The translations under genes and the position numbers were made by a program. Below are positions 3,395 to 43,925 of a stretch of DNA of 64,000 nucleotides, piece after piece (the first letter of the stretch is position 1; each line of letters starts with the position of its first letter). The stretch covers positions 207 through 64,206 of the forward strand of contig CAZALU010000001.1 in assembly GCA_964486075.1 (NCBI GenBank), read 5' to 3'. This DNA is from an uncultured Verrucomicrobiota bacterium (lineage in GTDB: Bacteria > Verrucomicrobiota > Kiritimatiellia > JAAZAB01). The notes beneath the pieces were generated by a model that worked only from the letters and a program-made list of their open reading frames with translations, did not search any database and was not told the origin of the DNA.

Positions 3395-4030
3395 GTGGAC
3401 AACCTCCGGGCTCTTCTTCTCTTCTTCGCCATCCTGCTTGCGTCCGCATTCTCCGCCCCGGCTCTCGATTCTTCCGAGCTGAGCTTTACCTGGAACGAGG
3501 CCAATGCGATCATGGCCGCAGCCAAAGCCCCCGAGGATTTTCTTGACGCGGCTCGAGTCTACCAGAAGCTGGTTGACGCCGGAGTCCGCAATGGTCCCCT
3601 CTTCTATAACCTGGGTACGGCGCTCTTACAGGCCGGTCGGTATGACAACGCTCTCGACGCCCTGGCCCGGGCCGAACGTTACCTGGGCGCCCAGCCGGAT
3701 ATCCGCCGGAACATGGGCATTGCCCTGGCCCGGAAACAGAAGACACCGGCCGCCGCCTGGCCCTGGTATCGCATTCTGCTGTTCTGGCATTTTATGCTGG
3801 CCGGCGCCACGCGCGCGATGATCACCGTGCTGGCCTTTACGCTGTTCTGGCTGAGCCTGACCCTGCTCCGCCTGGGCCCGCGGCGCGGGATGAACACCCT
3901 GGCGATACTGTCCATCCTGGCCTGCATCGCCTTCGGATCCAGCGTTGTCACCACCGTCTATCAGGAGTTGACGGCCCGGCGTTATACTCTGGATATTCCA
4001 TTCACCCCCTCGTCGACTACCCGGCCCTGA
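3395..4030 (+). CDS. TPR protein, BatE-like
   Basis: TPR motif LFYNLGTALLQAGRYDNALDALARAERY followed by TM helices, directly after batD. ORF is open from 3209, but GTG 3395 precedes the signal peptide. Confidence 0.7.
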   Translation: MDNLRALLLFFAILLASAFSAPALDSSELSFTWNEANAIMAAAKAPEDFLDAARVYQKLVDAGVRNGPLFYNLGTALLQAGRYDNALDALARAERYLGAQPDIRRNMGIALARKQKTPAAAWPWYRILLFWHFMLAGATRAMITVLAFTLFWLSLTLLRLGPRRGMNTLAILSILACIAFGSSVVTTVYQELTARRYTLDIPFTPSSTTRP

Positions 4031-4253
4031 ACGGAACTATTGCTGCAATAACCAGCCCTTTGGCTTTGAAAAAAATACACTCTTCCGATAGCTCGTCATT
4101 TCTGACCCTTTGGCCGCCTATAGATGCTCAGGTAATTATCTTCATAAAATCAAAGAACCCGTCTCAGCCGTCGCGCCAGTGAGGAAGCGCGTTAGGGAGA
4201 ACGAGCTCCACCTTTCAGACTGATGGATTGCGATAAAATATTCGTATTCTTGC

Positions 4254-4286
4254 TTGACACCCGAATAAGATAGTAATAGATTACTA
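4254..4286 (+). promoter_or_regulatory. Sigma70 promoter with overlapping palindromic operator (putative TetR site)
   Basis: TTGACA at 4254; inverted repeat TAGTAAT-AG-ATTACTA at 4271-4286 directly upstream of the TetR start. Confidence 0.65.
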
Positions 4287-4289
4287 ACT

Positions 4290-4904
4290 ATGAAAGACAA
4301 GAAATCACACCAACGCCTTCGGGCGTATGAGCGCAAAAGGGTGACGGTCCAAGCCATCATCGAGCTGGCAGCAGAGCAGAACCCCGCCGAAATCACCACC
4401 ACGGCCATGGCCGAACGCATGCACATAACCCAAGGTGCGCTGTTCCGGCATTTCGCCAGCAAGGATGCAATCTGGCAGGAAGTTATGAAATGGGTAGCCG
4501 CTAATTTGATGGCGCGCCTGGACACGGCTGCGCAGATGGCGAAATCGCCTCTCAAAGCCTTGGAGGCAGTCTTCCTGGCCCATATTGATTTCGTGGTTCA
4601 GTACACCGGCGTGCCGCGCATATTATTCGGAGAACTCCAACGCGCCGCTGATAGCCCGGCCAAACGCGTAGTACGCACGCTGCTCGCCCAGTACGGCAAA
4701 CGCCTGCAAACGCTCATCGAACAAGGCAAAGCGCAGGGTGAATTGACGCCCGAGCTCGATATCGAAACCGCTGCAACGTTGTTCATTGGAACGATTCAAG
4801 GCTTGATCATACAGTCATTGCTAACCGGGCAAAGCGGGAGTGTGCGAGCGCAGGCACCCAAGGTCTTCGCTATATACCTCCGCGGCATAAGGAGAGTGCG
4901 ATGA
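4290..4904 (+). CDS. TetR/AcrR family transcriptional regulator
   Basis: HTH signature ITTTAMAERMHITQGALFRHFASKDAIW. Confidence 0.92.
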   Translation: MKDKKSHQRLRAYERKRVTVQAIIELAAEQNPAEITTTAMAERMHITQGALFRHFASKDAIWQEVMKWVAANLMARLDTAAQMAKSPLKALEAVFLAHIDFVVQYTGVPRILFGELQRAADSPAKRVVRTLLAQYGKRLQTLIEQGKAQGELTPELDIETAATLFIGTIQGLIIQSLLTGQSGSVRAQAPKVFAIYLRGIRRVR

Positions 4905-6094
4905 AGCGTTTATCCATCAACGGCCGGACACTGGCGATGATCGGCGTACTCTTGCCCCTCTTGGCCTTGTTTATTTATGTGGCTCTACGATCCGGACCCC
5001 TGGCGCCGGTTGCGGTAACTGTAACCACGGCCGAAAGTCATGCTGTCATGCCCGCGCTTTTTGGTATAGGCACCGTGGAAGCTCGCTACACCTATCGGAT
5101 TGGTCCCACGCTGCCCGGCCGCGTCAAGCAGCTTGACGTAGACGTAGGCGATGCGGTCCGGGCAGGCCAATTGTTGGGCGAAATGGATCCGGTGGACCTT
5201 GATGAGCGTGTTGCCGCGCTGGCCGCCGCCCTGAAACGCGCGCAAGCCAATGTATCGGCCACCGAGGCGCAGGCTCGGGATGCGGCGGCACGCAAGACTT
5301 ATGCCGAGATACAGGCACAGCGTTACGCACAACTGCTGCAGGCGCACACAGTGAGCAAGGAAGCGTTGGACGCCAAGCAACAGGACCTGCAGGTGACCGC
5401 AGCCGGTCTTGCAGCCGCCCACGCCAATCTGGAAGCGGCCCGCCATGAACAGACGCGTCTCAACGCTGATCTTGATGCGATCATCCAACAACGCGCCAAC
5501 CTACGTCTCATTGCGCCGGCAGACGGCGTGGTCGTGACGCGCAACGCGGAACCCGGCACGACAGTGGTCGCAGGCCAATCGGTTATCGAAATGATTGATC
5601 CCAAGAGTCTGTGGATCAACGTGCGCTTTGATCAACTCAGCGCATCCGGATTGCAGGCCGGGCTTGCGAGTAGTATCGTGCTACGCTCACAAGGCGGTCG
5701 GAACCTTGCCGGGCGGGTGCTACGCGTAGAGCCGCTCGCCGATTCGGTTACGGAAGAAACACTGGCCAAGGTGATGTTCGATGCCATCCCGGAACCGTTG
5801 CCGCCCATTGGTGAATTGGCCGAGGTCACCGTGGCCTTGCCGGCGCTGCCGGCCGCGCCGACGTTGCCCAACGCTTGTGTGCTACGGGTCAATGGTCAGC
5901 TCGGGGTCTGGCGCATCGCAAACGGCGCGCTACGTTTCACCCCTGTCAAAGTGGGCGCGAACGAACTCGACGGCCGCACTCAGATTCTCGACGGACTCAA
6001 GCCCGGCGACCGCGTCGTTTTGTACAGCCAGCGTGCACTAACTGCTCGTCATCGCATCAAGGTCGTGACACGTCTGGCGGGAGGGACTCCATGA
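4901..6094 (+). CDS. Efflux transporter periplasmic adaptor (membrane fusion protein)
   Basis: N-terminal TM, lipoyl-like halves (GRVKQLDVDVGDAVRAGQLL; LIAPADGVVV), coiled-coil hairpin; ATGA overlap with TetR. Confidence 0.9.
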   Translation: MKRLSINGRTLAMIGVLLPLLALFIYVALRSGPLAPVAVTVTTAESHAVMPALFGIGTVEARYTYRIGPTLPGRVKQLDVDVGDAVRAGQLLGEMDPVDLDERVAALAAALKRAQANVSATEAQARDAAARKTYAEIQAQRYAQLLQAHTVSKEALDAKQQDLQVTAAGLAAAHANLEAARHEQTRLNADLDAIIQQRANLRLIAPADGVVVTRNAEPGTTVVAGQSVIEMIDPKSLWINVRFDQLSASGLQAGLASSIVLRSQGGRNLAGRVLRVEPLADSVTEETLAKVMFDAIPEPLPPIGELAEVTVALPALPAAPTLPNACVLRVNGQLGVWRIANGALRFTPVKVGANELDGRTQILDGLKPGDRVVLYSQRALTARHRIKVVTRLAGGTP

Positions 6095-7293
6095 TCAGTT
6101 TGGCCGGCCGCGACATCCAACACGCCTGGGGCAAATTTGTTTTCACGGGCGTTGGCCTGGGACTTTTGATCGGCGTAACGCTGACGATGGCCGGGGTGTA
6201 TCGCGGCATGGTGGACGACGCCATGGTATTGCTCGACAACAGCGGCGCCGATTTATGGGTGGTCCAAAAAGACACCCTTGGTCCTTATGCCGAACCATCC
6301 AGCCTGCAGGACGATCTCTATCGCGGACTTCTCGGAATGCCCGGCGTGGCTCGCGCAGCCAACGTCACTTATCTGACCATGCAGGTCCGCGAGGGTGAGC
6401 GCGATGTGCGTGCAATGGTGGTCGGCGTCTGTCCGAGTGGCGTCGGTGCGCCAGGACAACCCCGCTATCTTGTGGACGGACGACATATTACCCGGAGTCA
6501 CTACGAGACCGTGGCAGACGTGACTGCGGGATTCAAACTGGGTGAACGTCTTCGAATTCGTCGCAACGATTATACCGTGGTCGGGCTGACCCGGCGCATG
6601 GTCTCTTCCGGCGGTGATCCGATGATTTTTATCCCTTTGAAAGATGCGCAGGAAGCACAATTCCTGAAGGACAACGACGCCATTGTCCAACAACGGCGGC
6701 GTACCGCGGCCAATCCGGCCTTCAACCGCCCCGGGGTGCCGGGCTTGCTGGATGCGGTGAGCGCTTCGCAGAGCGCCAACCCGTATGTCAACGCCGTGCT
6801 CGTGCAGATCAAGCCCGGATATTCTCCCGAAGAGGTTGCCGAACCTATCAGGCGCTGGAAACGTCTGCAGGTCTACACGCGCGCGGAGATGCAGGATATT
6901 TTGATCGGCAAGCTGATTGCGACATCGGCCCGGCAGATCGGCATGTTCCTGGTGATTCTGGCCATTGTCAGCGCGGCGATTGTTGCTTTCATTATTTACA
7001 CCCTGACCCTGGGCAAGATCCGCGAGATTGCCGTGCTCAAACTGGTCGGAACCAGGAATCGAACTATCTCCGGAATGATCCTCCAGCAAGCCGTGGGGTT
7101 GGGGGTCCTCGGGTTCCTGGTGGGGAAAATCGCGGCTACCTATTGGGCTGGGATATTCCCAAAATACGTCCTCCTCCTGCCAAGTGATTCGGCGCGCGGA
7201 TTCGTGGCCGTGGTGCTGATGTGTGCCCTGGCCAGCGTATTGGCCATTCACGCAGCGCTCAAAGTGGACCCTGCGGAAGCGATAGGCGGCTGA
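6091..7293 (+). CDS. ABC transporter permease, FtsX/MacB family
   Basis: Likely start MISLAGRDIQH overlapping the upstream stop; GADLWV motif, REIAVLKLVGT, C-terminal KVDPAEAIGG. Confidence 0.9.
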   Translation: MISLAGRDIQHAWGKFVFTGVGLGLLIGVTLTMAGVYRGMVDDAMVLLDNSGADLWVVQKDTLGPYAEPSSLQDDLYRGLLGMPGVARAANVTYLTMQVREGERDVRAMVVGVCPSGVGAPGQPRYLVDGRHITRSHYETVADVTAGFKLGERLRIRRNDYTVVGLTRRMVSSGGDPMIFIPLKDAQEAQFLKDNDAIVQQRRRTAANPAFNRPGVPGLLDAVSASQSANPYVNAVLVQIKPGYSPEEVAEPIRRWKRLQVYTRAEMQDILIGKLIATSARQIGMFLVILAIVSAAIVAFIIYTLTLGKIREIAVLKLVGTRNRTISGMILQQAVGLGVLGFLVGKIAATYWAGIFPKYVLLLPSDSARGFVAVVLMCALASVLAIHAALKVDPAEAIGG

Positions 7294-7294
7294 T

Positions 7295-8005
7295 ATGCAC
7301 AAGACTGGCATCCAGATTGAAAATTTGTACAAACGTTACGGCAAGGGCGATACCGCTGTCGACGCGCTGAAGGGAGTCAATATGCAGGTGGTGGCCGGCG
7401 AGGTGGTCGGGCTGATCGGACCCTCGGGGTCCGGTAAGAGCACCATGCTCAAGTGCCTCGGGGCAGTGATCGAACCGACCAACGGACGCATGATTCTTGG
7501 CGATGAGGTGATCTATGACAACGGCTGGAAGATCAAGGATCTGCGCGCGCTGCGACGCGACCAGATCGGGTTCGTGTTTCAGGCACCCTACTTGATCCCC
7601 TTCCTCAATGTTACCGACAACGTTGCGCTGCTGCCGATGCTGGCCGGGCGATCCAACGCCGAATCCCGGAAACGGGCGGTACACTTGCTGGAGGCCTTGG
7701 ACGTTGCCCATCGCGCCGGGGCCATGCCGTCGCAGCTCTCCGGCGGTGAACAACAACGGGTGTCCATTGCGCGGGCGCTTGTCAATCGTCCGCCCGTGAT
7801 ACTTGCCGACGAACCCACCGCCCCGCTCGACAGCGAACGTGCGCTGGCCGTGATCCGCATTCTGAACCAAATGGCTCGCCAGTATGAGACGGCCGTCATC
7901 GTCGTGACGCACGATGAGAAAATTATTCCAACCTTCAAGCGCATCTATCAAATCCGCGACGGTCGCACGGAGGAGGAGGCTGGCGAAGGAAGGGCATTCG
8001 AATGA
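7295..8005 (+). CDS. ABC transporter ATP-binding protein (LolD/MacB-type)
   Basis: Walker A GPSGSGKST, signature LSGGEQQRV, Walker B ILADEPT, VTHD. Confidence 0.95.
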   Translation: MHKTGIQIENLYKRYGKGDTAVDALKGVNMQVVAGEVVGLIGPSGSGKSTMLKCLGAVIEPTNGRMILGDEVIYDNGWKIKDLRALRRDQIGFVFQAPYLIPFLNVTDNVALLPMLAGRSNAESRKRAVHLLEALDVAHRAGAMPSQLSGGEQQRVSIARALVNRPPVILADEPTAPLDSERALAVIRILNQMARQYETAVIVVTHDEKIIPTFKRIYQIRDGRTEEEAGEGRAFE

Positions 8006-30349: not shown

Positions 30350-30580
30350 TTTGGAAAATAAATTATTCGCGAAAAGAGTACGGAAGTTCGTGAAAATCGG
30401 ACACGGTCGCGCCGCTGTGACCGGCTATCATCTTTCTCCGAGCGTATAGCGTTTCGCAGAAAGTGACCACTTCTCCGCCAAAGGGCGGGCTGTGGCGAAC
30501 CCTCATTAGCCACTGCGAGCTGCAAGGCAAGCGGGAAGGCGAGGGCGAGGATTGAAGCCGGAAGTCAGAAGACGTTTCTT
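30350..30580 (+). ncRNA. Cobalamin (AdoCbl) riboswitch
   Basis: AAGAGTACGGAAGTTCGTGAAAATCGGACACGGTCGCGCCGCTGTGA 5' core, GCCACTG...GGGAAGGC B12 box, 3' GCCGGAAGTCAGAAGAC. Confidence 0.85.
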
Positions 30581-30661
30581 TTCATGCTCATTAAAGCAAC
30601 GGTTGACAGCCGTTTTGACTCCTGCGCTTGAAAGGAGGAAATGAGGACATACATCGTCTTC

Positions 30662-30706
30662 AAACCTTCAGATTCCTCGCGTGGGAGTCTGAAGGTTTTT
30701 TTATTT
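30662..30706 (+). terminator. Rho-independent terminator (riboswitch expression platform)
   Basis: AAACCTTCAGATTCC-loop-GGAGTCTGAAGGTTT followed by a T-run. Confidence 0.85.
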
Positions 30707-30753: not shown

Positions 30754-33027
30754 ATGCCGATCGGCATGGCAAACAAACGGATAGCTAAGATTTATCTGAT
30801 CCTGGCGGCAAGTGTCGCCTGTATCGTCGGGCTGGCCTGCTTGTTCTCGGAAAAAACAGCGCGGGGTGATGAAGGTGGAGACGTACGTCACCACGCCCGC
30901 AGCGGGCGCGGCGCTGTTGCGCGTGGCTCCGGGAAATTGTCTGTCGCGGCAAGGGCCAGTCAAGCGCGCGAAAATAGCGGACCCCAAGACGGATTTGCCA
31001 GCCTAAATTCAAAATCGCAATTGACCGACCCGCCCGGCGCGCTAGATGAGAGCACCGCGCTCGCTGCTAACCAGACGGATGAGGAAGCGCCCACCCCCGC
31101 AACGATCGCCATGCGCAAGGAAACGCTCATGCGGGAAAGATTCGGCGTCATCTTTCGGCAGGACAAATGGATACCGACGGCCGGCGGCGGCACAAACCTG
31201 GTCTACATTACAACCGGATCGCTTCCGCCGAGCCGAGTTGGCGAAGTTTATAACGTGCAATTCCAAGCTACGAGTGGTTTTCCGCCTTACCTGTGGCGCA
31301 TCGTGGATGGTGAGCTGCCGCCATCGTTCGCGTTTGACGGTCCTTCCGGCAAACTCAGCGGGACCGCGGTCGAGCCGATCACAGCCAATTTCTTCCTTGA
31401 GGTAACGGACAGCAAGGGCGCCAGGGATGTGGCGGAATATGTGCTGATAGTGCAGCCGGAACGAGCCCTTGAAATCGTGACCGAGAGTCTGCCCGCCGCT
31501 TTGCCCGGTACGAACTACTTTTGCCAGCTACAAGCGATCGGAGGGATTCCGCCGTATATTTGGAGCGGAGCGGGCAACCTCAACGAAATAGGGATCCTGG
31601 TGCTCGATTCGCAAACAGGACAAATTCACGGGGAGATTTCGGCTGCCATCCCGGAAGTTGATGTCCCGCTGATTTTTTGTTTGAGCGACGCGCAGCTGCG
31701 TATTTCCAAAGAACTAGTGCTGCATGTTGCCGCCACCCTGCGCATATTAGAAATTCAGCCAATATCCACTCATGTAGCGGATCAGTTCGAGCTAACGTTG
31801 CAGGCAACCGGCGGAGCGGAACCATATATTTGGGGCGTCAGCGGAACGCTCCCGCCCGGACTTGAGTTTTCCACGGATGGTTTATGCTCGGGTCAGCCGT
31901 CGGAGCCAGGCACTTACGAAATTAATATCTGGGCGCAGGACACAGCCGGCCTGTTTGATACCGTGCAGATCGCGCTGGAGGTCTTGCCGTCCCCCGACGC
32001 GGTATCGGACTTTGCAGCCCTACTGAGCCGTAACAGTGTGGCCCTGAATTGGAAACTGCCGGCAACGAGCGGAGATATCGGCGTTCTGATTGTGCGTGGC
32101 GCCGCGGCAACTCCGCTGACGCCATTGGACGGTGTCACGGTGTATCACGGATCCGAAACCTCGTGCCTTGATCGCGATGTGGGCAAGGGTCGCCACTACT
32201 ATGCCGCGTTTCTTGAAAAAAACGGAACGACAGTAACGTCAGCATCGCCGTCGATAATCTGCGCGTCGCTGCCGCCCGAAATAGATCCGTTCGCGGACAA
32301 AGTCGTCAGCAAGAATCTACTGCATCCCAATGCCTTCAGGGCGCTCGATCTGCCGCAGATTGTCCTTGGCGCTCCTCGCGGCAAGGGACTGGCGTGGGGA
32401 TCAACGGATGTGCTCTCATTGGGCGCTGCCATCAACGACGACGGCGGCGCAACGGCCCCCTACGGCGGCACGATCACGTTGGAGTTCGTGGATAACGCCG
32501 TTTGGGACGGACCGGGCGTTGACTTTACGATTTTTGAAAATGTTTTCTATATTTGCGATGCCTCCGATGTGCCGGATCCTGAAACCCGCTTCATGGAACC
32601 GGCCGTGGTATCCGTCAGCCAGGATGGGGTGAACTGGCGGCAATTCAAGTTTGATTTCTCGCCGCGTTACGACCCCGCCAGCGGCATCCTCAATCTCCGA
32701 CATCCCTATTGCTACAATTCCGGATTTGCCGGAGTTAATCCTGTCATGAGCAACGGCTACGATCCGGATCCCACGGACCCGGCTCTGTCGGGAGGCGACA
32801 GTTTCGATCTCGCGGATGTAGGGCTGGACTGGATTCGTTACGTGTGCATCCAGTCCACGGGCAGCCGTTGGTTGATTGATCATGACGGCGATCTCGTTTA
32901 TCACAACGAGGAAACCGATGCGGCAACGCGCAGTAACAACAAGTCGGGCTTCGATCTCGACGCCGTGACGGCGATATGGATGACGAAGTTGTCGGCGGCC
33001 GGTGACATCAACGGCAAGTGCCCATGA
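30754..33027 (+). CDS. Membrane-anchored surface protein: three putative Ig (He_PIG) domains, an FN3-like domain and a C-terminal 'cell-surface' domain
   Basis: N-terminal TM; repeats such as ITTGSLPPSRVGEVYNVQFQATSGFPPYLW; C-terminal SLG..GGTITLEF..DGPGVDFTIFEN..EPAVVSVSQDG..GGDSFDL..GFDLDAV. Confidence 0.8.
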   Translation: MPIGMANKRIAKIYLILAASVACIVGLACLFSEKTARGDEGGDVRHHARSGRGAVARGSGKLSVAARASQARENSGPQDGFASLNSKSQLTDPPGALDESTALAANQTDEEAPTPATIAMRKETLMRERFGVIFRQDKWIPTAGGGTNLVYITTGSLPPSRVGEVYNVQFQATSGFPPYLWRIVDGELPPSFAFDGPSGKLSGTAVEPITANFFLEVTDSKGARDVAEYVLIVQPERALEIVTESLPAALPGTNYFCQLQAIGGIPPYIWSGAGNLNEIGILVLDSQTGQIHGEISAAIPEVDVPLIFCLSDAQLRISKELVLHVAATLRILEIQPISTHVADQFELTLQATGGAEPYIWGVSGTLPPGLEFSTDGLCSGQPSEPGTYEINIWAQDTAGLFDTVQIALEVLPSPDAVSDFAALLSRNSVALNWKLPATSGDIGVLIVRGAAATPLTPLDGVTVYHGSETSCLDRDVGKGRHYYAAFLEKNGTTVTSASPSIICASLPPEIDPFADKVVSKNLLHPNAFRALDLPQIVLGAPRGKGLAWGSTDVLSLGAAINDDGGATAPYGGTITLEFVDNAVWDGPGVDFTIFENVFYICDASDVPDPETRFMEPAVVSVSQDGVNWRQFKFDFSPRYDPASGILNLRHPYCYNSGFAGVNPVMSNGYDPDPTDPALSGGDSFDLADVGLDWIRYVCIQSTGSRWLIDHDGDLVYHNEETDAATRSNNKSGFDLDAVTAIWMTKLSAAGDINGKCP

Positions 33028-33188: not shown

Positions 33189-34949
33189 ATGAAATCAAAG
33201 TTAAAGTTGGTGCTGGGCTTATGCCTGGTAACGTTCGCTACACAAACGTTCGCCATGGTCATAGGCGGTAGTAATTATTTAGTGCAAACATTTTACGAGA
33301 ACCCGCACGCAGGCGAAACGTTGGTGGCGTTTGACTGGGGTGACAATAACAACCTATACTACTCGACCGGGCGACCGGATTGGGGATTGGGATTATCCAT
33401 TTACCGGTACGATGGCGCCACGGCATTGAAGCTGTACACGGATGAGAACGCGTTCGCCGGAAGCCGTGTGACCGTGATCGGCGGCCGTATTTACTTCAAC
33501 GACGGCGGGACATATGACCGTTGGACTTGCGACTACTACCGCTATGACCCGGTGCACCCGTCCGCGCCGGTGAATATAGGCGTGCTGAGCGACATCAGTG
33601 GACTTGAGACGCGCACCGGAACCGATTTTTGGGCCGCAGGTGGCTGGAACGCCGCGATCTATTATAGTACTCTGAATGCGGATGGCGATCTGCTGAGCAA
33701 CCCGTTGGTGAATCTCGGCACGATCGGGAACGCAAGCGGTCCGATCGTTTTTGATAAGGATGGCAATCTCTACTACGTGGAAGGCTATGTCGCAGAGGGC
33801 AAGCCAACCGTGTACCGCTGGAGCGCCGCGGAAGTAGCCGCGGCCATCGCCGACCCCGCGGGTAATCCGTTGAGCCCGGACGGCCATACATGGGCGTCCC
33901 TGTCATCGGGCGATGGAGCCTCCGGCATGGTGGTGGACAACAAGGGGCACTTGGTGGTTACTGCGACGTCGTTCACTGATCCCAGCCAGTTACAGCGTCT
34001 GTTCGTGACCAACGGCATCTACGCAGGCTATGAGGTGCTGGCCCGTTCGGACGAGCGCCTGGAATCCGTCCGTTTGCGCGCCGGCAGAATCTACGTCAGT
34101 TCTTCCGCAGGAATATGCGCCGTTCTCCCCATGCAGGCGGATACCCACGTTATTAACGACTATGACTATGACGGCAAGTCTGACCTGGCGGTTTACCGGG
34201 CCGGCTATTGGTCCATCTATTCCCTGGAGAACGGCATTATCCTTAACAACGTTGGCGTTTGGGGAGAGTCGGATTCCATTGCGGTGCCGGGAGATTATGA
34301 CGGCGACGGCAAGGCTGATCTGGCGGTTTACCGGGCCGGCTATTGGTCCGTCTATTCCTTGACGAACGGTATTATCCTCGATAACGCCGGGATATGGGGC
34401 GAAGCGAACTCTATTCCGGTGCCGGGAGATTATGACGGCGATGGCAAGTCTGACCTGGCCTTGTATCGCGACGGCATTTGGTCCATCTACATGATGGGTA
34501 GCGGTGAGACCCTCTCCGGCCCCTTTGGCGAAGCGGGCTGCACGCCGGTGCCGGGGGATTATGACGGCGATGGCAAGGCCGACCTAGCCTTGTATCGCGA
34601 CGGCATTTGGTCCATCTACATGATGGGCAGCGGAGATATCCTCTCCGGCCCCTTTGGCGAAGCGGGCTGCACGCCGGTGCCGGGAGATTATGACGGCGAT
34701 GGCAAGTCTGACCTGGCCTTGTATCGCGACGGCATTTGGTCCATCTATATGATGGGTAGCGGTGAGACCCTCTCCGGCCCCTTCGGCGAAGCGGGCTGCA
34801 CGCCGGTGCCGGGGGATTATGACGGCGACGGCAAATCCGATCTGGCCTTGTATCGTGACGGTTATTGGGCCATCCGTTCCCTGAAGAGCGGCGTGATCCT
34901 CGACGCTGCCGGGGAGTGGGGCGGGCCAGACTCCGTTCCGGTTAAGTAG
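33189..34949 (+). CDS. Secreted protein with probable beta-propeller N-terminus and C-terminal FG-GAP-like repeats
   Basis: SD CAGGAG, signal peptide, blade-like motifs (IVFDKDGNLYYVE, MVVDNKGHLVVT), six DYDxDGKxDLA repeats. Confidence 0.8.
   Translation: MKSKLKLVLGLCLVTFATQTFAMVIGGSNYLVQTFYENPHAGETLVAFDWGDNNNLYYSTGRPDWGLGLSIYRYDGATALKLYTDENAFAGSRVTVIGGRIYFNDGGTYDRWTCDYYRYDPVHPSAPVNIGVLSDISGLETRTGTDFWAAGGWNAAIYYSTLNADGDLLSNPLVNLGTIGNASGPIVFDKDGNLYYVEGYVAEGKPTVYRWSAAEVAAAIADPAGNPLSPDGHTWASLSSGDGASGMVVDNKGHLVVTATSFTDPSQLQRLFVTNGIYAGYEVLARSDERLESVRLRAGRIYVSSSAGICAVLPMQADTHVINDYDYDGKSDLAVYRAGYWSIYSLENGIILNNVGVWGESDSIAVPGDYDGDGKADLAVYRAGYWSVYSLTNGIILDNAGIWGEANSIPVPGDYDGDGKSDLALYRDGIWSIYMMGSGETLSGPFGEAGCTPVPGDYDGDGKADLALYRDGIWSIYMMGSGDILSGPFGEAGCTPVPGDYDGDGKSDLALYRDGIWSIYMMGSGETLSGPFGEAGCTPVPGDYDGDGKSDLALYRDGYWAIRSLKSGVILDAAGEWGGPDSVPVK
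34426..34860 (+). repeat. Intragenic 129-bp (43-aa) tandem repeat, about 3.3 near-identical units
   Basis: GDYDGDGK(S/A)DLALYRDGIWSIYMMGSG(E/D)(T/I)LSGPFGEAGCTPVP at a 129-nt period. Confidence 0.9.
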
Positions 34950-35182
34950 CAATCAGGAGCTGAACAACAATAAGGTGTCCGCCAATTAGCGAATATTCCT
35001 TAACCCGATATTGAAGCAGTCACTCTTCGGACTGGATGGCGGATAAAGCAGGTGTTGCCGGCTTCGTAAAATATGTGCGGGCTCTCGCGGTCTATACGCG
35101 GGAGCTCGCCTTGAGGCCCAAGGGATAAGCGCTCCCGACGGCAGTGGTGTGTTTTTGTAAACTTATGCGGCGGTTAACCACT

Positions 35183-38104
35183 ATGTGTAACACATCAACT
35201 AATAGCGTTACGTTGCCGGCCAGGCGTGTCCATGTCATTGCCTGCGGCGTGCTCGCGCTGGATATCAATGCCATCGTGAAGCGGCTGGGTCTTGAGGTGA
35301 CCGTGACGTTTCTGCCGGGCGGCTTGCACAATAACCCTCGCGAATTGCAGACGCGTCTGCAACGCGCGGTGGACGATGCGTCCGCCAACGGCAGCAGCGA
35401 TCTGATCGCCATCGGCTATGGCGTGTGCGGACGTGGAACCGTAGGCCTGCGGGCGGGCGCCGTGCCGCTGGCCATTCCGCTGGTGCATGACTGCATCGCG
35501 CTCTTTCTGGGATCCGACCGGGCCTATAGCGAACAATTCGCCAAATATCCCGGCACCTACTATGTCTCCGCCGGCTGGGTCGATGAGAAAGTACGTCCAT
35601 GGAGTGCGCAGGAGCAGGAAACCGCCGAATGCCGCAGCCCCATCGAATACGATTTCGAACGGCTGGTGTGCCAGTATGGCCAGGAGCACGCGCAGGCCAT
35701 TCGGGAATTCGTCACCAGTTGGCATCGTAATTACCAGCGCGCCGCTTTCATTGACACTGGCGAACAGTCGGTCCGCCGCGCGCGCTACGCGGGCATGGCG
35801 CAGGCCATGGCCGCTGAATTCGGCTGGAAATACGAAGAAATCTCCGGCACACACGAGCTGCTGACGCAGTTGCTCACGACCCAGGAGTCCAGCGATAGCA
35901 TTCTAATCGTGCCGCCGGGGCATATGACGATCTACGATGGCGTACGTCGGCGGATGCGAGCAGTCCCCGTGCAGGAGTGCGCGGAAGCGCCGCCCGAGCC
36001 GACCCTGCTGGTGTATGACGAGCCGCCAAAGCGCGAGATTAAACCCCGGCAGGAAATGGTGCGCCTCGGGATGGGCATCGACGCCGGCGGAACCTACACG
36101 GACATCGTCATCTACGATTTTGAGAGCCGGTCCGTTCTGCAGAAGGCCAAAAGCCTCACGACGCCGTGGGATTATGCGATCGGGATCAATACCGCGCTTG
36201 ACCGGATCGATGGCAAACGATTCGCACAGGTTGACTTGATCTCTGTTTCCACAACTTTGGCCACCAATGCTATTGTGGAGGGGCGCGGCCAAAAAGTGGG
36301 ACTGCTGCTCATGCCGCCCTATGGCTGGCGCGACCCGGAAAATTTCACGCACAACCTGATCGCGCTCATCGCAGGGCAGCTCGCAATTGACGGCCGAGAA
36401 CTGGCGGCGGTTGATCCCGACCAGGTGCGGCGCTCCGTGCGCGATATGCTGGAGCGTCAGGGCGTCAAGGCCCTGGCCGTGGCGGGCTATGCCAGCCACG
36501 TCAATCCCTCCCACGAGATGCAAGTCAAGGCGGCAATCCGCCAGGTGACCGATTGCGTCGCGACCTGCGCGCATGAGGTCTGCGGGGGCATGGATTATCG
36601 CATTCGCGCCGAGACAGCCGTTCTCAACGCGCAGATTATTCCTTGTCTCGAAGCGTTTCTTGCCAAGCTGCAGAGCACCCTCCAGTGCCGCGGGCTGAAT
36701 GCGCCCGTTATGGTCGTTAAGAGCGACGGCTCCCTAATGAGCCTTGAGGCCGCGTGCCAACGCCCGATCGAGACGATTCTCTCCGGGCCCGCCGCCAGCG
36801 CGACCGGGGCCGGCTACCTCACAGGCCTGCCCGAGGCGATCATCGTTGACATCGGCGGCACAACGACCGACACGGCGACGATCCGCGGCGGGGCAGTCCG
36901 AACCTGTGCTGACGGCGCCACGGTGGGTCGATGGAAGACAAACGTCGAGGCCCTGGATATGCGCACGCTCGGTTTGGGAGGCGACAGCCAGATAGCCTGC
37001 GTCGAGGGCAAACTGCGAATTGGTCCGCAACGTGTAGCGTCGGTCGCGTGGCTTGCGAGCCAGCACCCGCGAACAGGCGAAGCGTTAATGTGGTTGGAGC
37101 ATCACCTGAACCACTTTATAGTGGCCACGCGGGGCATGGAGCTGCTGACCCTCACGCCATACAGGCACCGTCGCCTGCATGACCAATCGGAAAAGCGCGT
37201 TGTGGAAATTCTGAAGGAGCGCCCCTACTCGGTGGACGAATTGATCGAACGCACACAATGCATGGCCGAACATTTCCTGCCGTTGGGAGTGTTGGAGGAA
37301 GACCACATCATTCAGCGCTGCGGCCTGACGCCGACGGATCTGTTACATGCCGCCGGCCGGCTGGACCTGTGGGATGCCGATGCCTCGCGCCGACTGTGCG
37401 ATATGTACGCCTGCCTGATGCGCCTGGATCGGGCCCGTTTTATCGAACAGGGACAAGACCACTTCGTGCGTCTGTTGGCGCTTGAGCTGCTGAAGAAACA
37501 GCTTGCCGACGAGATTGACCCGGAGACGATTGAAACGTCGCCAGCCGCCATGGCCCTGATTGACAGGGCCTTGAGCGGGGAGAGCGACGGGTATAGCGTG
37601 CAAATCACGTTGAAGGCACCCGTGATCGGCATCGGCGCCCCGGCCCATTTCTTCCTGCCGGAGGCGGCGCGACTTTTGCGTGCCGAGGCCATCATTCCGG
37701 CTCACGCCGACGTCGCCAACGCCGTCGGCGCCATCACCAGTCTCGTGCGGATTCACCGCTCCGTAACAATTGCCGTTGATGAAAAGGGCCTCTACCGCTT
37801 GGAGGGCCTGCCGGAAACGCCCAGCTTCGGTAACATCGAGGCCGCGCAGGAGTTTGCCGTCGAACAATTGCGGAATATGGTTAAAAATCTAGGCCGCCAG
37901 GCAGGAACCGCCGCCTTGAAGGTAGAGGTTCGGATCAATGACCGCATGGGCTCACTGAAGGATGGTCAGCAGCTATTCCTTGGACGCACGGTGGCTGCCT
38001 GCCTGACCGGACGTCCGGCCTTGGCCCGCTTGGGCGCGACGCCTGATGCCGCGCCATCGGCATCTTTCCGACAAGGTGCGGATGATGGCACCGCAGGCGT
38101 TTAG
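35183..38104 (+). CDS. DUF1638 domain fused to a hydantoinase/oxoprolinase (ASKHA) domain
   Basis: N-terminus VIACGVL..GLHNNP..GYGVCG..HDCIALFLGS..GTYYVSAGW; C-terminus GIDAGGTYTD, TILSGPAAS, VDIGGTTTD, NAVGA. Confidence 0.85.
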   Translation: MCNTSTNSVTLPARRVHVIACGVLALDINAIVKRLGLEVTVTFLPGGLHNNPRELQTRLQRAVDDASANGSSDLIAIGYGVCGRGTVGLRAGAVPLAIPLVHDCIALFLGSDRAYSEQFAKYPGTYYVSAGWVDEKVRPWSAQEQETAECRSPIEYDFERLVCQYGQEHAQAIREFVTSWHRNYQRAAFIDTGEQSVRRARYAGMAQAMAAEFGWKYEEISGTHELLTQLLTTQESSDSILIVPPGHMTIYDGVRRRMRAVPVQECAEAPPEPTLLVYDEPPKREIKPRQEMVRLGMGIDAGGTYTDIVIYDFESRSVLQKAKSLTTPWDYAIGINTALDRIDGKRFAQVDLISVSTTLATNAIVEGRGQKVGLLLMPPYGWRDPENFTHNLIALIAGQLAIDGRELAAVDPDQVRRSVRDMLERQGVKALAVAGYASHVNPSHEMQVKAAIRQVTDCVATCAHEVCGGMDYRIRAETAVLNAQIIPCLEAFLAKLQSTLQCRGLNAPVMVVKSDGSLMSLEAACQRPIETILSGPAASATGAGYLTGLPEAIIVDIGGTTTDTATIRGGAVRTCADGATVGRWKTNVEALDMRTLGLGGDSQIACVEGKLRIGPQRVASVAWLASQHPRTGEALMWLEHHLNHFIVATRGMELLTLTPYRHRRLHDQSEKRVVEILKERPYSVDELIERTQCMAEHFLPLGVLEEDHIIQRCGLTPTDLLHAAGRLDLWDADASRRLCDMYACLMRLDRARFIEQGQDHFVRLLALELLKKQLADEIDPETIETSPAAMALIDRALSGESDGYSVQITLKAPVIGIGAPAHFFLPEAARLLRAEAIIPAHADVANAVGAITSLVRIHRSVTIAVDEKGLYRLEGLPETPSFGNIEAAQEFAVEQLRNMVKNLGRQAGTAALKVEVRINDRMGSLKDGQQLFLGRTVAACLTGRPALARLGATPDAAPSASFRQGADDGTAGV

Positions 38105-38255
38105 AGCGGAGGCGGGAAACCCTTTGGGCGTTCCCGCCCTACAATTCAGAATAAAGGTCGCTCCGTTGCAGGGCGATAAGCTTCAGAGCGGAGGCGGGAA
38201 ACCCTTTGGGCGTTCCCGCCCTACAATTCAGAATAAAGGTCGCTCCGTTGCAGGG
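38103..38255. repeat. Tandem duplication of a 71-bp REP-like hairpin unit (82-bp period)
   Basis: Identical units 38103-38173 and 38185-38255 containing GGCGGGAAACCCTTTGGGCGTTCCCGCC, between convergent genes. Confidence 0.9.
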
Positions 38256-39403: not shown

Positions 39404-40090
39404 TTAACACCAATAGGATGCAATGCGCTCAGAATTAGAGGTGTTTTCAACGATTATTCCATTATCAAGTACGATAAAACGACGGCATACCCTGCGCGCG
39501 AAGTCAAGGTTATGAGTTGCCATCAGCAGTGTGGTGTTCAGGCCAATAAGCAATTCGGCTAGTTCTGCTCTGCCGACCGGATCCAGCGCCGCCGAGGGTT
39601 CGTCGAGCAACAACAGCGGCGGATCCGCAACCAGCACGCCGGCCAGGGCCACACGCTGCAGTTGTCCGTGTGAGAGACGATGGGGCGAATGCAAGGCCAG
39701 TTTGGCGATGCCAAGCTTCTCCATCATCGGCAAAGCTTTAGCGCGCGCTTCCGTGCGGGACAAACCCCGGCGTTCCAATGTGAAGGCAATATCGTCAATC
39801 ACGCTTGGAAACAGGATCTGATCATCGGGAATGCCGAACAAAAAGCCTGCCTGATCTCGAATCTGCCGTGTGGTTGCCTTAGATAGAGGGATATCGCACA
39901 CCGTAATTGCCCCATCAAACGGAACCAGGCCCACGGATGCATACAAGAGGGTGGTCTTGCCGGACCCGTTGAGACCCAGCAGGGCCACCCGCTCGCCCGG
40001 AGCGATAGCCAGCGAAATCCCATTAAGAACGGGCGCATCTTCCGGCCGATATCTCGCCGAGACGTTCTGAAAGGTTAGAGCAGAGTTCAT
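39404..40090 (-). CDS. ECF transporter ATPase (CbiO/EcfA)
   Basis: GLNGSGKTT, PDDQILFPSVIDDIAF, LSHGQLQRV, LLLDEP, ATH. Confidence 0.9.
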   Translation of the reverse strand: MNSALTFQNVSARYRPEDAPVLNGISLAIAPGERVALLGLNGSGKTTLLYASVGLVPFDGAITVCDIPLSKATTRQIRDQAGFLFGIPDDQILFPSVIDDIAFTLERRGLSRTEARAKALPMMEKLGIAKLALHSPHRLSHGQLQRVALAGVLVADPPLLLLDEPSAALDPVGRAELAELLIGLNTTLLMATHNLDFARRVCRRFIVLDNGIIVENTSNSERIASYWC

Positions 40091-40836
40091 AAACCATCCG
40101 CCCATCTGGCCGTGATGCTTGCGCCAAGCAAGAGGATCGTGGTGGTCACGGCCAACACATCCAAGATGGAGACGGCTGCCGGCGTTGTCCGGACGGTGAC
40201 CTCAAATCCGCGCAGATCCATGGCGACGGCAACGCGTTCGGCGCGATTCATGATTCGCAGGACCCAAATGGCGGGGAAAGCGCCAAGAACCCTTAATCTC
40301 ATCGTCAGCCTCGACGGCAAGCCGCGTATCCGCAGAGCGGATGAGATGCGCCCAGTTTCATTGGTAAGCATCGCGGTTTGGTGAACGATTTGCATGATTA
40401 GAATTGCCATCGTGCGCGGCACAGGCAATCCGCCCAGCGCCGTGCCCAGCTCAGCAAAATCAAGGGTCGCTATGGTGGCCGCGCAAATAAAAATACATCC
40501 TGTGCCGCGGATGCCGATTTCCAACGGCACTCGCACTGCGCCGAACCAATGGCTGCTTGCCGTATGCGGGGGGGGCACCCAAGGCGTGAGCAGAAACAAG
40601 GGCAGGAATAAAATACCGGCGTATAGCAACAAGCCGACCAGGTTTTTTCTGGGAACGCCACACAGCCATACCCAGCCGACAACAGCGCCGCAGACAAGTG
40701 CCATGCCCAGCGGCTGATGCAGGGGAGCGAAGAGGCAACTTATAAAAACGATCAGCCCGCAAGCCACGCGCGCGGATGGCGTCAAGCTCTGCATACGGCG
40801 ACTGCCTGAACCCCAGAATTCAAGGAACGCTGTCAC
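40087..40836 (-). CDS. ECF transporter T component (CbiQ/EcfT)
   Basis: TM helices; coupling motifs SALRIRG and RAERVAVAMDLRGF. Confidence 0.85.
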   Translation of the reverse strand: MTAFLEFWGSGSRRMQSLTPSARVACGLIVFISCLFAPLHQPLGMALVCGAVVGWVWLCGVPRKNLVGLLLYAGILFLPLFLLTPWVPPPHTASSHWFGAVRVPLEIGIRGTGCIFICAATIATLDFAELGTALGGLPVPRTMAILIMQIVHQTAMLTNETGRISSALRIRGLPSRLTMRLRVLGAFPAIWVLRIMNRAERVAVAMDLRGFEVTVRTTPAAVSILDVLAVTTTILLLGASITARWADGL

Positions 40837-40840
40837 CGGT

Positions 40841-41461
40841 CTATCCTTTCTTGCGGGCTGTTATAATATAGCTATGTTCATCATCGGTCGTGGAAATAAC
40901 GTTGAATCGGTTCCGCTCGAGCAGCTGCGCGGTCTCGTCAGCGCAAACAAGATGATCATGTCTGACGGAAGGATGCACTTTTGCATGGATCCGATTGACC
41001 TGCGCCCGCGAAATCAAGTGCACTATGTGCAGATGGCTTTCCGGCCGCAGTACGCGGTGCAATTCTTTGGCGACAGCCGCGTGATTCTCAAAGTGAGGCC
41101 ATACCGAGAAGCAGATGATCCGATCTATGCTAGCATCCTCAAAGGGAATCTTTTCGGCTGATGCGTGATGCCAACTGGCGCGCACATCATCCGCTTTTCT
41201 CCGCGCCAGCGCAAGCATCCGGGTCGAAATGTCCAACGCCATAACGCGCCCTGCCGACCCAAGCCTTCGCAAAAGCGCCTTGGTAAGATTGCCAGTGCCG
41301 CAACCGACGTCAAGCACAACCTCGCTGGCATTGATATCGAATTGCGCAAGACAAGCATCAAGATCATGGGCTACAAGGGACAGATCGAACCCGGCGTCCC
41401 ATGTGTCGGCGAGCGCATCGAAAAACTCTATGCGGGGATCGGAAATAGGACTTGTTTTCAT
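40841..41461 (-). CDS. Class I SAM-dependent methyltransferase
   Basis: EFFDALADTWD, VLDVGCGTG, ALDISTRML, ELHRVLRP; ATG 41461 overlaps the upstream stop. Confidence 0.88.
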   Translation of the reverse strand: MKTSPISDPRIEFFDALADTWDAGFDLSLVAHDLDACLAQFDINASEVVLDVGCGTGNLTKALLRRLGSAGRVMALDISTRMLALARRKADDVRASWHHASAEKIPFEDASIDRIICFSVWPHFENHAAVAKELHRVLRPESHLHIVHLISRAQVNRIHAKVHPSVRHDHLVCADETAQLLERNRFNVISTTDDEHSYIITARKKG

Positions 41462-41979
41462 CGAGGAGGTTTCTTTATAGGCACATAACCCTTTGATAAG
41501 CGCACGATCGCCGGAATAGCGAAAAGCATAAGTATAATGCCGGGCCAGCCGCTCAGCAAAGAGATTCCTGCGATAAATGTAGCCGGCAGCCCCATATAAA
41601 GCGCTGCCAGATACAAAAGCCCGGCGCCAACAACCCTGCCGTAGATGAGTATTGGTATCAAAAGAATCAACACCGGCGCGCGCGGAAACCAGGCATGGAA
41701 GATGCCAATCAGGATCGCCATGAGGGATAATTCCACTGACATAGTCGGCGCCACCGGCGGATATAACGGCGGCATGCCTGTGACGGCGCCGGATAACAGT
41801 GGGACGACGAAGGCCGTCAGCGCAGATGCGCCTGGCCGCACAAAAAAAGCCAATGCCACCAACGGTAAGTACATAGGCATGAAAATGTGGCCGAGGTGAA
41901 TCAAGTGAAACAATATGGGCAGCAGCAGGGCGATGGCTCCAAACAGCCCGCAATAGGCAAATTCTCGATTGGTCATCAT
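41458..41979 (-). CDS. ECF transporter S component-like membrane protein
   Basis: Hydrophobic 173 aa; LLLPILFH...FMPMYLPL...PLLSGAVTGMPP...SWPGIILML pattern of ECF_trnsprt proteins. Confidence 0.72.
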   Translation of the reverse strand: MMTNREFAYCGLFGAIALLLPILFHLIHLGHIFMPMYLPLVALAFFVRPGASALTAFVVPLLSGAVTGMPPLYPPVAPTMSVELSLMAILIGIFHAWFPRAPVLILLIPILIYGRVVGAGLLYLAALYMGLPATFIAGISLLSGWPGIILMLFAIPAIVRLSKGYVPIKKPPR

Positions 41980-43925
41980 TAAAACTTCAGGTGCGCGCCT
42001 GAGAAAATGCTTGTCCCGGGCATCGGATAGCCGGGTAGAAACTCATAATTTTGATCGGTCAGATTTTCCAGGGCAACGTACAGTTCGCCCGGAATATTGG
42101 TCCAAGTCTTAATATCCAGCGTGATCTTGGCATTAGCCACAAAATATCCGTCAATTTCTTTAAGGTCCTCCGGTGCCGGCGCTCCGGAACGGCCATTATA
42201 GGCATACTGATCGGCAACGTATTCCGCGTCCAGGTCCACTTTGACATTCGGCAAAATCTTGAGCGACACACCGGCGCTGACGCTCACCTTCGGCGAACGG
42301 GGTGTTTTAGCATACTCCGGATGCATCAAAGTCAGTCCGGCAAAACATGACAGCCGCTCCCATGGCGTAAGATGCAACGACGTCTCCCACCCGTCGACCG
42401 CCTTTTTACCCGTATTCAGCAAGCCGTTTGGCGTAACCTCCAGCAGGTTATCGCCGTTCATGTGAAAAATCGAGGATTGTAAGGCGGCCAACTTAGAAAC
42501 ATCCCAGTGGATGCCACCCTCGGTATTATCCATCACCTCGGCTTTTAATTGGTCCATCGTCGACGCGGAGGTACCTTTGATATAGATGCCCGGGTAATTT
42601 ACGCCGCGCGATTGGGATAAAAAGAACGTCAAGGTGTCTTTAGTCGCCGCGAGGGAGGCGCAGGGTGCCAATTCGTTCTCAAACTCACTGCTGATGTAAT
42701 AGCGTCCGCCGACTGAGGGTGTGATCGTGACGTCCTTGACCGGTAAGGCGTAACGCGCGCCCAGGTACGGCGCCACGGTCACGAAAGTGCCCTTGAACTG
42801 GAACGGCACCTTGCCGGAAAGAGTCGTGTTTTTCGATTCTCCGCTGTCCGCCCCCGCATCCAGTCCGGCCGTCAGAGTCCATTGGTCTATCAGCACATCA
42901 TACAGCGAGCGAACCCCGTAATTATCCCAGTCCGTATCGGAGCTCCCCGGGGGAGAGGTGTTGTCGCCGTCCGCCAAATGATCCTTTTTCCAGCGGATTT
43001 TACCATCATCGAGATAAAAAAGGGCAAAGCCCTGGACGAAGTCACTGCCTGTATCCAAACGCAAGCCCTGCGTCAGGGTTTCGGTGGCGAATTTATTCCT
43101 GATGGGAGTCGGCTGGTCAATGGGGCCGGGATCGAGCGCCCAGTTGTCGGTTCGGTGCAGAATATAGGACACATGATTGTCATCTGCGAGATCCACGCCT
43201 AATCTCAAATACTGCCCATCCAGGTTTGCGGCCGAATGCGCGCGTTGGCCCTGCGATTCTTTGTGATAGGCGCCGCCGTAATAATCGAACAGGTCTATTT
43301 TTCCGCCGGTCATCAGCGATCCCAGCCACGTTTGATAACTGCCGTAACCGGCATTGATCTCGGTTTCATACCCCGGCTTTTTGCGCCGCAGGGACTGGAT
43401 ATCCACCGCGCCAAACGTGCCGGAATAAGCTTGCGGCTGCGGCCCCTTGGAGACGGAGACCGAATCCGCGAAATCTACCGGTGTCATATCCAGCAGCGGA
43501 TGATTCCAGGCACCTGACTCGCGCGGAATACCATCCGCATAAATCCTGATTTCACTGCCGGGCCGCCCGGCGCCCTCGCCCCGGATATAAATAGAGCCGC
43601 CATCCGCTCCGCCGTAGGCGCCCAACGGGTTGAAACGTGCGATGGTCACCCCGGGTACGCTGCGCAGGGCGGTCGACAGCTCGCGAGCGTCCAAGCGCTC
43701 GATTTGACTGCGGCCCACTTCCGATACTACGCCGCCGGCCGGCCGGACCGTTTCGCGGGCCGTTATCGGCGGCGCCGTCACCAGGATTTCTGGCGTATCG
43801 CTGATCGATGCCTCTGCCGCCAGATCGATATTTGACATCTGCGCCCCGGCGATGACGCCGCAGAACAGCACGCTCGCACAGACCTGGAACCGCACCCCAC
43901 ATCGCCCAAACATCATTGCACGCAT
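41979..43925 (-). CDS. TonB-dependent receptor
   Basis: Signal peptide, TonB box EILVTA, plug (LRSVPGV, SIYIRG, IYADGIP, VSVSKGP), LENLTDQNYE..GYPMPG, terminal Phe. Confidence 0.92.
   Translation of the reverse strand: MRAMMFGRCGVRFQVCASVLFCGVIAGAQMSNIDLAAEASISDTPEILVTAPPITARETVRPAGGVVSEVGRSQIERLDARELSTALRSVPGVTIARFNPLGAYGGADGGSIYIRGEGAGRPGSEIRIYADGIPRESGAWNHPLLDMTPVDFADSVSVSKGPQPQAYSGTFGAVDIQSLRRKKPGYETEINAGYGSYQTWLGSLMTGGKIDLFDYYGGAYHKESQGQRAHSAANLDGQYLRLGVDLADDNHVSYILHRTDNWALDPGPIDQPTPIRNKFATETLTQGLRLDTGSDFVQGFALFYLDDGKIRWKKDHLADGDNTSPPGSSDTDWDNYGVRSLYDVLIDQWTLTAGLDAGADSGESKNTTLSGKVPFQFKGTFVTVAPYLGARYALPVKDVTITPSVGGRYYISSEFENELAPCASLAATKDTLTFFLSQSRGVNYPGIYIKGTSASTMDQLKAEVMDNTEGGIHWDVSKLAALQSSIFHMNGDNLLEVTPNGLLNTGKKAVDGWETSLHLTPWERLSCFAGLTLMHPEYAKTPRSPKVSVSAGVSLKILPNVKVDLDAEYVADQYAYNGRSGAPAPEDLKEIDGYFVANAKITLDIKTWTNIPGELYVALENLTDQNYEFLPGYPMPGTSIFSGAHLKF

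Follow-up and report, generated by a model that had tools for sequence, protein, structure and literature searches.

Corrinoid-dependent methyltransferases serve methionine synthesis, acetogenesis, methylotrophic methanogenesis, the turnover of the osmolyte betaine and dechlorination, and all of them need their cobalt kept as Co(I). To our knowledge, the RamA/RACo ATPases are the only understood class of corrinoid activators; EutA and DdrA are ASKHA-type reactivases or chaperones of B12 enzymes. Price et al. found that a DUF1638 gene and a RamA-like gene are both needed for the three-part B12-dependent methionine synthase of Phaeobacter inhibens, and that DUF1638 and RamA co-distribute in alpha-proteobacteria (10.1101/192971). 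The MecG/MecH pair of the mec cassette has been interpreted likewise (10.1101/2021.08.30.458270), and later work reads RamA and DUF1638 proteins of marine bacteria in the same way. DUF1638 has been known as genetically essential since 2018, yet it is functionally blank. Here we analyze a 64,000-nucleotide stretch of DNA (the window) from an uncultured Verrucomicrobiota bacterium (assembly GCA_964486075.1, contig CAZALU010000001.1), in which a single gene encodes a DUF1638 domain fused to an ASKHA ATPase of the hydantoinase A (HyuA) type. The literature that we searched holds no description of a DUF1638-HyuA fusion.

In this protein and its relatives we observe a two-module architecture with conserved residues, no HyuB partner in the genome, a clade of their own, and a genomic association with corrinoid methyltransferase systems. 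From sequence comparison, we propose that the fusion is an ATP-dependent accessory (maintenance) factor for the corrinoid proteins of B12-dependent methyl transfer, a reading to which we assign a probability of about 0.55. Its most likely target in the host would be a split methionine synthase.

Architecture of the fusion protein

The gene encodes 973 residues from the ATG at 35183. It lies in a single open frame spanning 35144-38104 (+ strand), with in-frame start options at GTG 35144, ATG 35165 and ATG 35183. The gene and its modules are laid out as follows.

35183-38104, + strand: DUF1638-HyuA-type ASKHA fusion gene (open frame, Pfam; full-length orthologues at 50-72% identity)
35222-35974, + strand: DUF1638 domain, residues ~14-264, two Rossmann-like alpha/beta lobes (PF07796; AlphaFold model)
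35975-36064, + strand: inter-module linker, where the predicted local distance difference test score (pLDDT) falls to ~50, and below 50 at residues 284-288, in the full-length model
36065-38035, + strand: HyuA-type ASKHA ATPase module, residues ~295-951 (Pfam; Foldseek)

Pfam assigns residues 43-231 to DUF1638 (PF07796; 121 bits against a cut-off of 27, E = 5e-35), and the match covers the whole profile, positions 1-161 of 161. Residues 297-455 match the full Hydant_A_N profile (104 bits), and residues 475-618 match Hydantoinase_A (121 bits) over profile positions 1-147 of 291 only. No Pfam match to Hydant_A_C was found anywhere in the 973-residue protein, nor any to RACo_middle, RACo_C_ter, Fer2 or Fer4. 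The full-length model has a pLDDT of 85.6 and a predicted template modeling (TM) score (pTM) of 0.73, with low confidence in the linker near residues 284-288. The original prediction, made from the letters of the window alone, had described a cysteine-bearing DUF1638 domain joined to a hydantoinase A domain, and both Pfam and alignment bear this out.

The DUF1638 module carries a set of conserved cysteine, histidine and aspartate residues.

35243-35245, + strand: Cys21 (ACG), at the C-terminal end of strand beta-1 (at least 90% conserved; position from the model)
35327-35329, + strand: His49, in the loop following strand beta-2 (at least 90% conserved)
35426-35428, + strand: Cys82 (GYGVCG), after strand beta-3 (invariant, n = 59)
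35489-35494, + strand: Asp103-Cys104 (HDC), after strand beta-4 (both invariant)

These figures come from an alignment of 59 DUF1638 sequences, 43 from fused proteins and 16 from stand-alone domains; C82, D103 and C104 are invariant in both kinds, and C21 and H49 reach at least 90%. The motifs picked out in the original prediction (ACG, GYGVCG and HDC) correspond to C21, C82 and D103-C104. Because these motifs are the family's conserved residues, the fusion observation is real and well beyond chance. Modeled alone with AlphaFold, the domain forms two Rossmann-like alpha/beta lobes (pLDDT 89.5), and all of the conserved residues lie at the C-terminal ends of strands 1-4 in the first lobe, the usual ligand site in Rossmann-like folds. 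The Cys3-His/Asp site could hold an iron-sulfur (Fe-S) cluster or a metal. Fold searches with the model returned generic matches only, to PBP-I/LacI and Asp/Glu-racemase-like folds (VIA Z at most 9.1; Foldseek TM below 0.31), a level that the search tool itself describes as common. A PDB sequence-profile search found no solved relative of DUF1638, and a search of the ESM Atlas likewise came back empty.

The C-terminal 680 residues align in Foldseek to whole HyuA-type subunits at 16-19% identity. The best match is N-methylhydantoinase 9h03_A (E = 1.7e-28), with a TM per target of 0.34 against a chain of 1277 residues; further matches are 5svc_B, 5l9w_B/b and 6yra_A, with a TM per target of 0.5-0.64 for chains that are HyuA subunits only. 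The matched chains also represent acetone carboxylase beta, acetophenone carboxylase alpha/gamma and caprolactamase alpha subunits. RACo (3zyy) is matched at a generic ASKHA level only (E = 1e-4, TM 0.09-0.14). Three ATP-site motifs and one additional element are recognizable in this module.

36080-36103, + strand: phosphate-1 motif D300-A-G-G-T-Y-T-D307 (kept in fused and unfused relatives)
36848-36871, + strand: phosphate-2 motif D556-x-G-G-T-T-x-D563 (invariant)
37043-37582, + strand: mostly helical stretch of ~180 residues with a winged-helix-like element (helices 621-798, model)
37622-37642, + strand: adenosine motif region G816-x-G818-A-P820 (G816, G818, A819 and P820 invariant)

Across 60 fused sequences, the phosphate-1 residues D300, A301, G302, G303, T304, T306 and D307 never vary, and Y305 is kept in at least 90%. 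Since the ASKHA motifs are invariant in fused and unfused relatives alike, ATP binding by the HyuA-type module is probably retained. The Hydantoinase_A profile stops matching at the helical stretch, leaving its positions 148-291 unmatched, and residues 667-695 show a weak match to DprA_WH.

Canonical HyuA proteins work with a HyuB subunit, and two examples from the same phylum (loci L109 and L111) match all three HyuA profiles in full, and a HyuB gene comes directly after each. Hydantoinase_B (PF02538) had no match in the window, as had already been remarked from the sequence, or elsewhere in the assembly (3.36 Mb, 92% complete), and none in six more genomes of the phylum with the full fusion. 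The same search matched 6 of 14 control genomes. Such absences hold for assembled sequence, and most of the relatives are metagenome-assembled genomes (MAGs). Scores against the NCBIfam equivalogs of caprolactamase and acetophenone carboxylase subunits fall far below their cut-offs (CapA, 126 bits against 1000; ApcC, 75 against 1500; ApcA, 62 against 1250).

Full-length orthologues of 930-1030 residues are common: the closest, at 67-72% identity, come from Lentisphaerota/Victivallales, and others from Planctomycetota, Desulfobacterota and Spirochaetota. Clustered at 50% identity, the fused family comprises about 60 representatives, reaching down to 32% identity, and beyond it lie hundreds of unfused relatives of 650-700 residues that match the whole ASKHA part. 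In a tree of the ASKHA module, fused and unfused proteins form one clade, and between it and canonical HyuA runs a stem that is ~3.5 substitutions per site long on either side. Unfused forms are nested at least 10 times among the fused; some of these "unfused" database entries may be truncated gene calls. In the DUF1638 tree, the fused domains again form one clade (SH-like approximate likelihood ratio test support 99, stem length 1.45), and the host's second, stand-alone DUF1638 (contig C114) falls outside it.

The phylogenetic comparison with hydantoinase A called for in the original prediction thus places the family in a clade of its own, with no clustering with bona fide oxoprolinases, the outcome that would have spoken against that prediction. 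The absent HyuB and the separate clade together lead us to reject a true hydantoinase of the HyuA+HyuB class, and the sub-cut-off equivalog scores add to the good support for this part of the original prediction. Membership in GlmL/MutL is rejected as well: the PF13941 match reaches 21.8 bits, under the cut-off of 27, and covers only residues 299-346 (~50 residues), and NF040745 scores 28.8 against 475.

Association with RamA and corrinoid methyltransferases

We assessed the distribution of DUF1638 in 301 genomes drawn evenly from the window's phylum. DUF1638 occurs in 77 of them, as the full fusion in 7 and as a stand-alone protein in 73. RamA (PF14574) is found in 113 genomes, including every one of the 77 that carry DUF1638. 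Of the 73 genomes with a stand-alone DUF1638 gene, 33 have it no more than 2.5 kb from RamA, and mostly the two genes abut or overlap; locus L112 (2309-4692), for example, encodes a corrinoid protein, RamA and DUF1638 in that order, the stop and start codons of successive genes overlapping. This co-occurrence and adjacency indicate that DUF1638 normally partners an ASKHA ATPase, and the fusion links it to a different ASKHA ATPase than RamA. The fusion does not take the place of RamA: all seven fusion-bearing genomes of the phylum carry RamA, as do 32 of 34 family-bearing genomes from five phyla. We therefore reject replacement and take the fusion to be an addition to RamA.

The neighborhoods of the family point in the same direction. 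We collected 91 distinct family loci, 60 of them with at least 8 kb of total flank, and counted genes for MttB, URO-D-type methyltransferases, corrinoid proteins, pterin-binding methyltransferases and RamA. At least one such gene is present at 20 of the 60 well-flanked loci; among all 91, 23 loci carry corrinoid genes, 18 of them within 3 kb. Unfused orthologues in Acidobacteriota and Desulfatiglandales (L060, L075, L076, L108) adjoin genes for a pterin-binding methyltransferase, a corrinoid protein, URO-D-type methyltransferases and RamA. At L062 a corrinoid protein gene begins 4 nucleotides after the fusion, and in a Syntrophobacter MAG (L088, 4526-10100) one strand encodes three putative factors of corrinoid reactivation one after another: a RamA-like protein (539 residues), a 241-residue protein resembling the MetH activation domain, and the fusion. 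At L072 (7339-9980) a gene for a flavodoxin (200 residues), the classic electron donor in methionine synthase reactivation, overlaps the start of an unfused ASKHA orthologue. URO-D methyltransferase genes are adjacent at L084 and L019. Also at L084 (9977-11860), a 627-residue open reading frame without any family match overlaps the stop codon of the planctomycete fusion gene.

At L025, in a Thermoguttaceae MAG, a metE under riboswitch control is divergently oriented to the fusion. Two cobalamin riboswitches lie at this locus (3393-7806) on the strand opposite the fusion, one for metE and the other for a CobA/BtuR-like adenosyltransferase. Chance can hardly account for the recurrence of such corrinoid links, with different partner genes, across unrelated lineages. 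Along with the published genetics and the RamA data, the presence of corrinoid genes at a third of the loci supports the link between DUF1638 and corrinoids drawn in the original prediction, whose suggested co-occurrence check, run here with RamA, gave 77 of 77. A further lead comes from the proteome of strain DCMF, where an "N-methylhydantoinase A" ("HydA"), a possible member of the subfamily, is strongly induced in a glycine-betaine methyltransferase cluster (PMC9768040).

In Desulfobacterales, fused genes lie near a gene for an MttB-family methyltransferase, nine loci having the fusion directly behind a DAO-type oxidase. Several loci of this order hold a DAO-type flavin adenine dinucleotide (FAD) oxidase, an M24 creatinase/prolidase and an Asp/Glu/hydantoin-racemase-like gene, a combination that recalls creatinine/sarcosine catabolism. 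The fusion might then be a genuine ATP-dependent small-molecule enzyme in which DUF1638 replaces HyuB, acting on an N-methylated or cyclic amide derived, for instance, from creatinine or betaine. Its ASKHA half is a structurally complete HyuA-type subunit, such subunits normally phosphorylate substrates, and the DUF1638 fold weakly resembles Asp/Glu and hydantoin racemases (Z 7.6-7.9). We nevertheless consider such an enzyme unlikely: HyuB is missing from all seven fusion-bearing genomes, the equivalog scores stay far under every cut-off, and half of Hydantoinase_A and all of Hydant_A_C go unmatched, unlike in canonical HyuA of the same phylum. Moreover, the racemase-like fold matches are at the level that the tool calls common, stand-alone DUF1638 tracks RamA and not catabolic genes, and the DAO and creatinase neighbors would equally fit betaine demethylation downstream of MttB.

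Host genome and proposed role

The host encodes a split methionine synthase, with a homocysteine S-methyltransferase on contig C70 and a pterin-binding protein together with a cap-plus-B12-binding corrinoid protein (268-residue frame) on contig C79. It also has RamA (C20) and the stand-alone DUF1638 on C114. In the 92%-complete assembly, we detected neither a MetH activation domain nor MetE, CbiC or CobS. The host is probably a B12 auxotroph that relies entirely on scavenged B12 for its methionine and has the split, B12-dependent enzyme as its sole methionine synthase. Contig C79 further bears (L010, 1475-3589, - strand) a 704-residue open reading frame without Pfam or NCBIfam match. Directly next to the pterin-binding methyltransferase gene and not far from that for the corrinoid protein, this frame is a candidate for an undescribed methyltransferase component.

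Within the window, the fusion gene comes last in a same-strand run of three genes headed by the only cobalamin riboswitch in the assembly.

30358-30595, + strand: cobalamin riboswitch aptamer (RF00174, 48 bits against a gathering score of 31.5)
30662-30698, + strand: terminator-like hairpin with a U-run, the probable riboswitch expression platform
30754-33027, + strand: exported 757-residue Ig-domain (He_PIG) protein, first gene behind the riboswitch (no PDB sequence match)
33189-34949, + strand: exported 586-residue FG-GAP repeat protein, second gene
35077-35109, + strand: 13-bp GC-rich hairpin without a U-tract, in the 234-nucleotide gap before the fusion gene

We detected neither a terminator-like nor a sigma-70-like site in the 234-nucleotide gap, and co-transcription of the fusion gene with the riboswitch-headed run is plausible from the sequence. 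The hairpin at 35077-35109 might serve processing or stability, or it might terminate transcription weakly. Downstream, a 74-nucleotide unit occurs twice in tandem at 38100-38255 (82-nucleotide spacing, 99-100% identical), beginning inside the last codons of the fusion gene and lying between it and a convergent epimerase gene. Beyond this, a convergent operon (39404-43925, - strand) encodes a TonB-receptor plug protein, an N-terminally extended S-adenosylmethionine methyltransferase, a CbiQ-like T component and an ABC ATPase; no cobalamin riboswitch was found in it at the gathering score.

This setting raises the possibility that the fusion is a cytoplasmic B12-processing or delivery enzyme of the uptake pathway. 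It would receive scavenged cobamides from the riboswitch-controlled surface proteins and make them usable, for instance, like CblC/CblD or BtuM, through decyanation/dealkylation or a thiolate-cobalt hand-over. Its gene ends the only riboswitch-headed run of a probable B12 auxotroph, behind two genes for exported proteins, its conserved cysteines could ligate cobalt, and at L025 a riboswitch-controlled CobA/BtuR-like gene is close to the fusion. The association with a riboswitch or with uptake genes is, however, private to this genome, co-transcription is no more than plausible, and in other phyla the family lies beside methyltransferase and activator genes, not transporters; we regard an uptake role as quite improbable. 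Corrinoid remodeling, offered in the original prediction as an alternative to activation, is disfavored because neither CobS nor CbiC was found in the host genome; CbiZ was not searched for.

For a maintenance factor of corrinoid proteins, we envisage that the DUF1638 module would deal with the corrinoid or its carrier protein through the Cys3-His/Asp site at the C-terminal edge of the first Rossmann-like sheet. The site may carry a metal or Fe-S centre, or it may ligate cobalt by a thiolate. The HyuA-type module would bind and hydrolyze ATP, driving an otherwise unfavorable step. That step could be the reduction of inactive Co(II), parallel to RamA, or cofactor loading/exchange like that of the ASKHA reactivases; reductive activation and loading/exchange appear about equally likely. 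The fusion would mirror, in one polypeptide, the gene pair of RamA and stand-alone DUF1638, and it would work alongside RamA, not instead of it. We infer the ATPase activity, the target protein, the metal or cofactor binding and the reaction alike from conserved residues and gene context.

Several points weigh against a corrinoid maintenance role. RamA is already present, so that a distinct need for the fusion is yet to be defined. The Cys3 site could be a structural Zn site, and the protein contains no ferredoxin-type domain by Pfam. The strong hairpin in the 234-nucleotide gap makes co-transcription uncertain. Riboswitch linkage was not found at 14 of 15 related loci, the single exception having its riboswitch on the divergent strand, nor in any of the six other fusion-bearing genomes of the phylum. 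This arrangement therefore carries little weight for the family and some for this organism. The 15 closest loci (Lentisphaerota and Planctomycetota; PVC group) have no conserved neighbor. Related genomes are not independent, and the co-occurrence counts overstate the statistical weight.

The neighborhood count calls for the same caution, since no corrinoid gene lies close by at 40 of the 60 well-flanked loci and the figure of 20 in 60 stands without a background rate for random genes in methyltransferase-rich genomes. Many MttB-linked loci, moreover, are close kin in the ASKHA tree. On these grounds the fusion might have no corrinoid function at all, the neighborhood signal arising from the many methyltransferase genes of Desulfobacterota and the shared ancestry of syntenic loci. 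We judge this the least likely of the alternatives: the associations recur with different partners in Acidobacteriota, Desulfatiglandales, Syntrophobacter, Thermoguttaceae and Planctomycetota, there is published genetic evidence for DUF1638 itself, and DUF1638 occurs only in RamA-bearing genomes in our sample.

The maintenance role can be extended to a broader picture, which we put forward tentatively and hold to be doubtful. DUF1638 would be a general module coupling ASKHA ATPases to corrinoid carriers, and the fusion a self-contained second class of activase or loader without a ferredoxin domain. Its site would hold an Fe-S cluster or ligate cobalt directly, and in the host the sole riboswitch would turn the fusion on to spare B12, so that the scarce cofactor stays active on the single methionine synthase.

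Comparison with known systems

The HyuA subunits of N-methylhydantoinase (9h03), caprolactamase (6yra), acetone carboxylase (5svb/5svc/5m45) and acetophenone carboxylase (5l9w) share with the fusion Hydant_A_N and Hydantoinase_A, the fold of the whole subunit and the ATP motifs. The fusion differs from them in having no genomic HyuB, only a partial Hydantoinase_A, no Hydant_A_C and an added N-terminal DUF1638. GlmL/MutL of glutamate mutase is, like the fusion, an ASKHA ATPase without a catalytic partner and shows weak N-terminal similarity in the phosphate-1 region, but GlmL/MutL proteins serve adenosylcobalamin radical enzymes, not methyl-transfer corrinoid proteins. RamA/RACo/RACE proteins (PDB 3zyy; Fer2 or 4Fe-4S plus RACo_middle and RACo_C_ter) are, like the fusion, ASKHA ATPases associated with corrinoid proteins, and would share with it the proposed logic of ATP-driven cofactor upkeep. 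Unlike them, the fusion lacks RACo_middle, RACo_C_ter and a ferredoxin domain, and its match to 3zyy is generic. The fusion belongs, by its sequence and its fold, to DUF1638 and to the HyuA superfamily; by the defining tests of each, it falls outside the HyuA/HyuB class, RACE/RamA and GlmL/MutL.

Stand-alone DUF1638 proteins (Phaeobacter inhibens PGA1_c13340, Ruegeria SPO2162 and MecG) belong to the same Pfam family as the fusion's N-terminal module and have the same C21/H49/C82/D103-C104 site. Both forms are associated with corrinoid-dependent methyl transfer, and both have an ASKHA ATPase as partner. The difference is that the fusion is covalently joined to a HyuA-type ATPase, where the stand-alone protein is encoded beside a RACo-type ATPase. 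That DUF1638 also occurs in conserved fusion with an ASKHA ATPase of a second kind constitutes a Rosetta-stone link and therefore argues that DUF1638 works physically with the ATPase. The fusion also offers a single soluble polypeptide for assaying DUF1638 function. Specific to the window analyzed here are the position of the riboswitch, the auxotroph background and the phylum-level statistics on DUF1638 and RamA. Among the systems compared, the fusion would by analogy work most like the pair of RamA and DUF1638.

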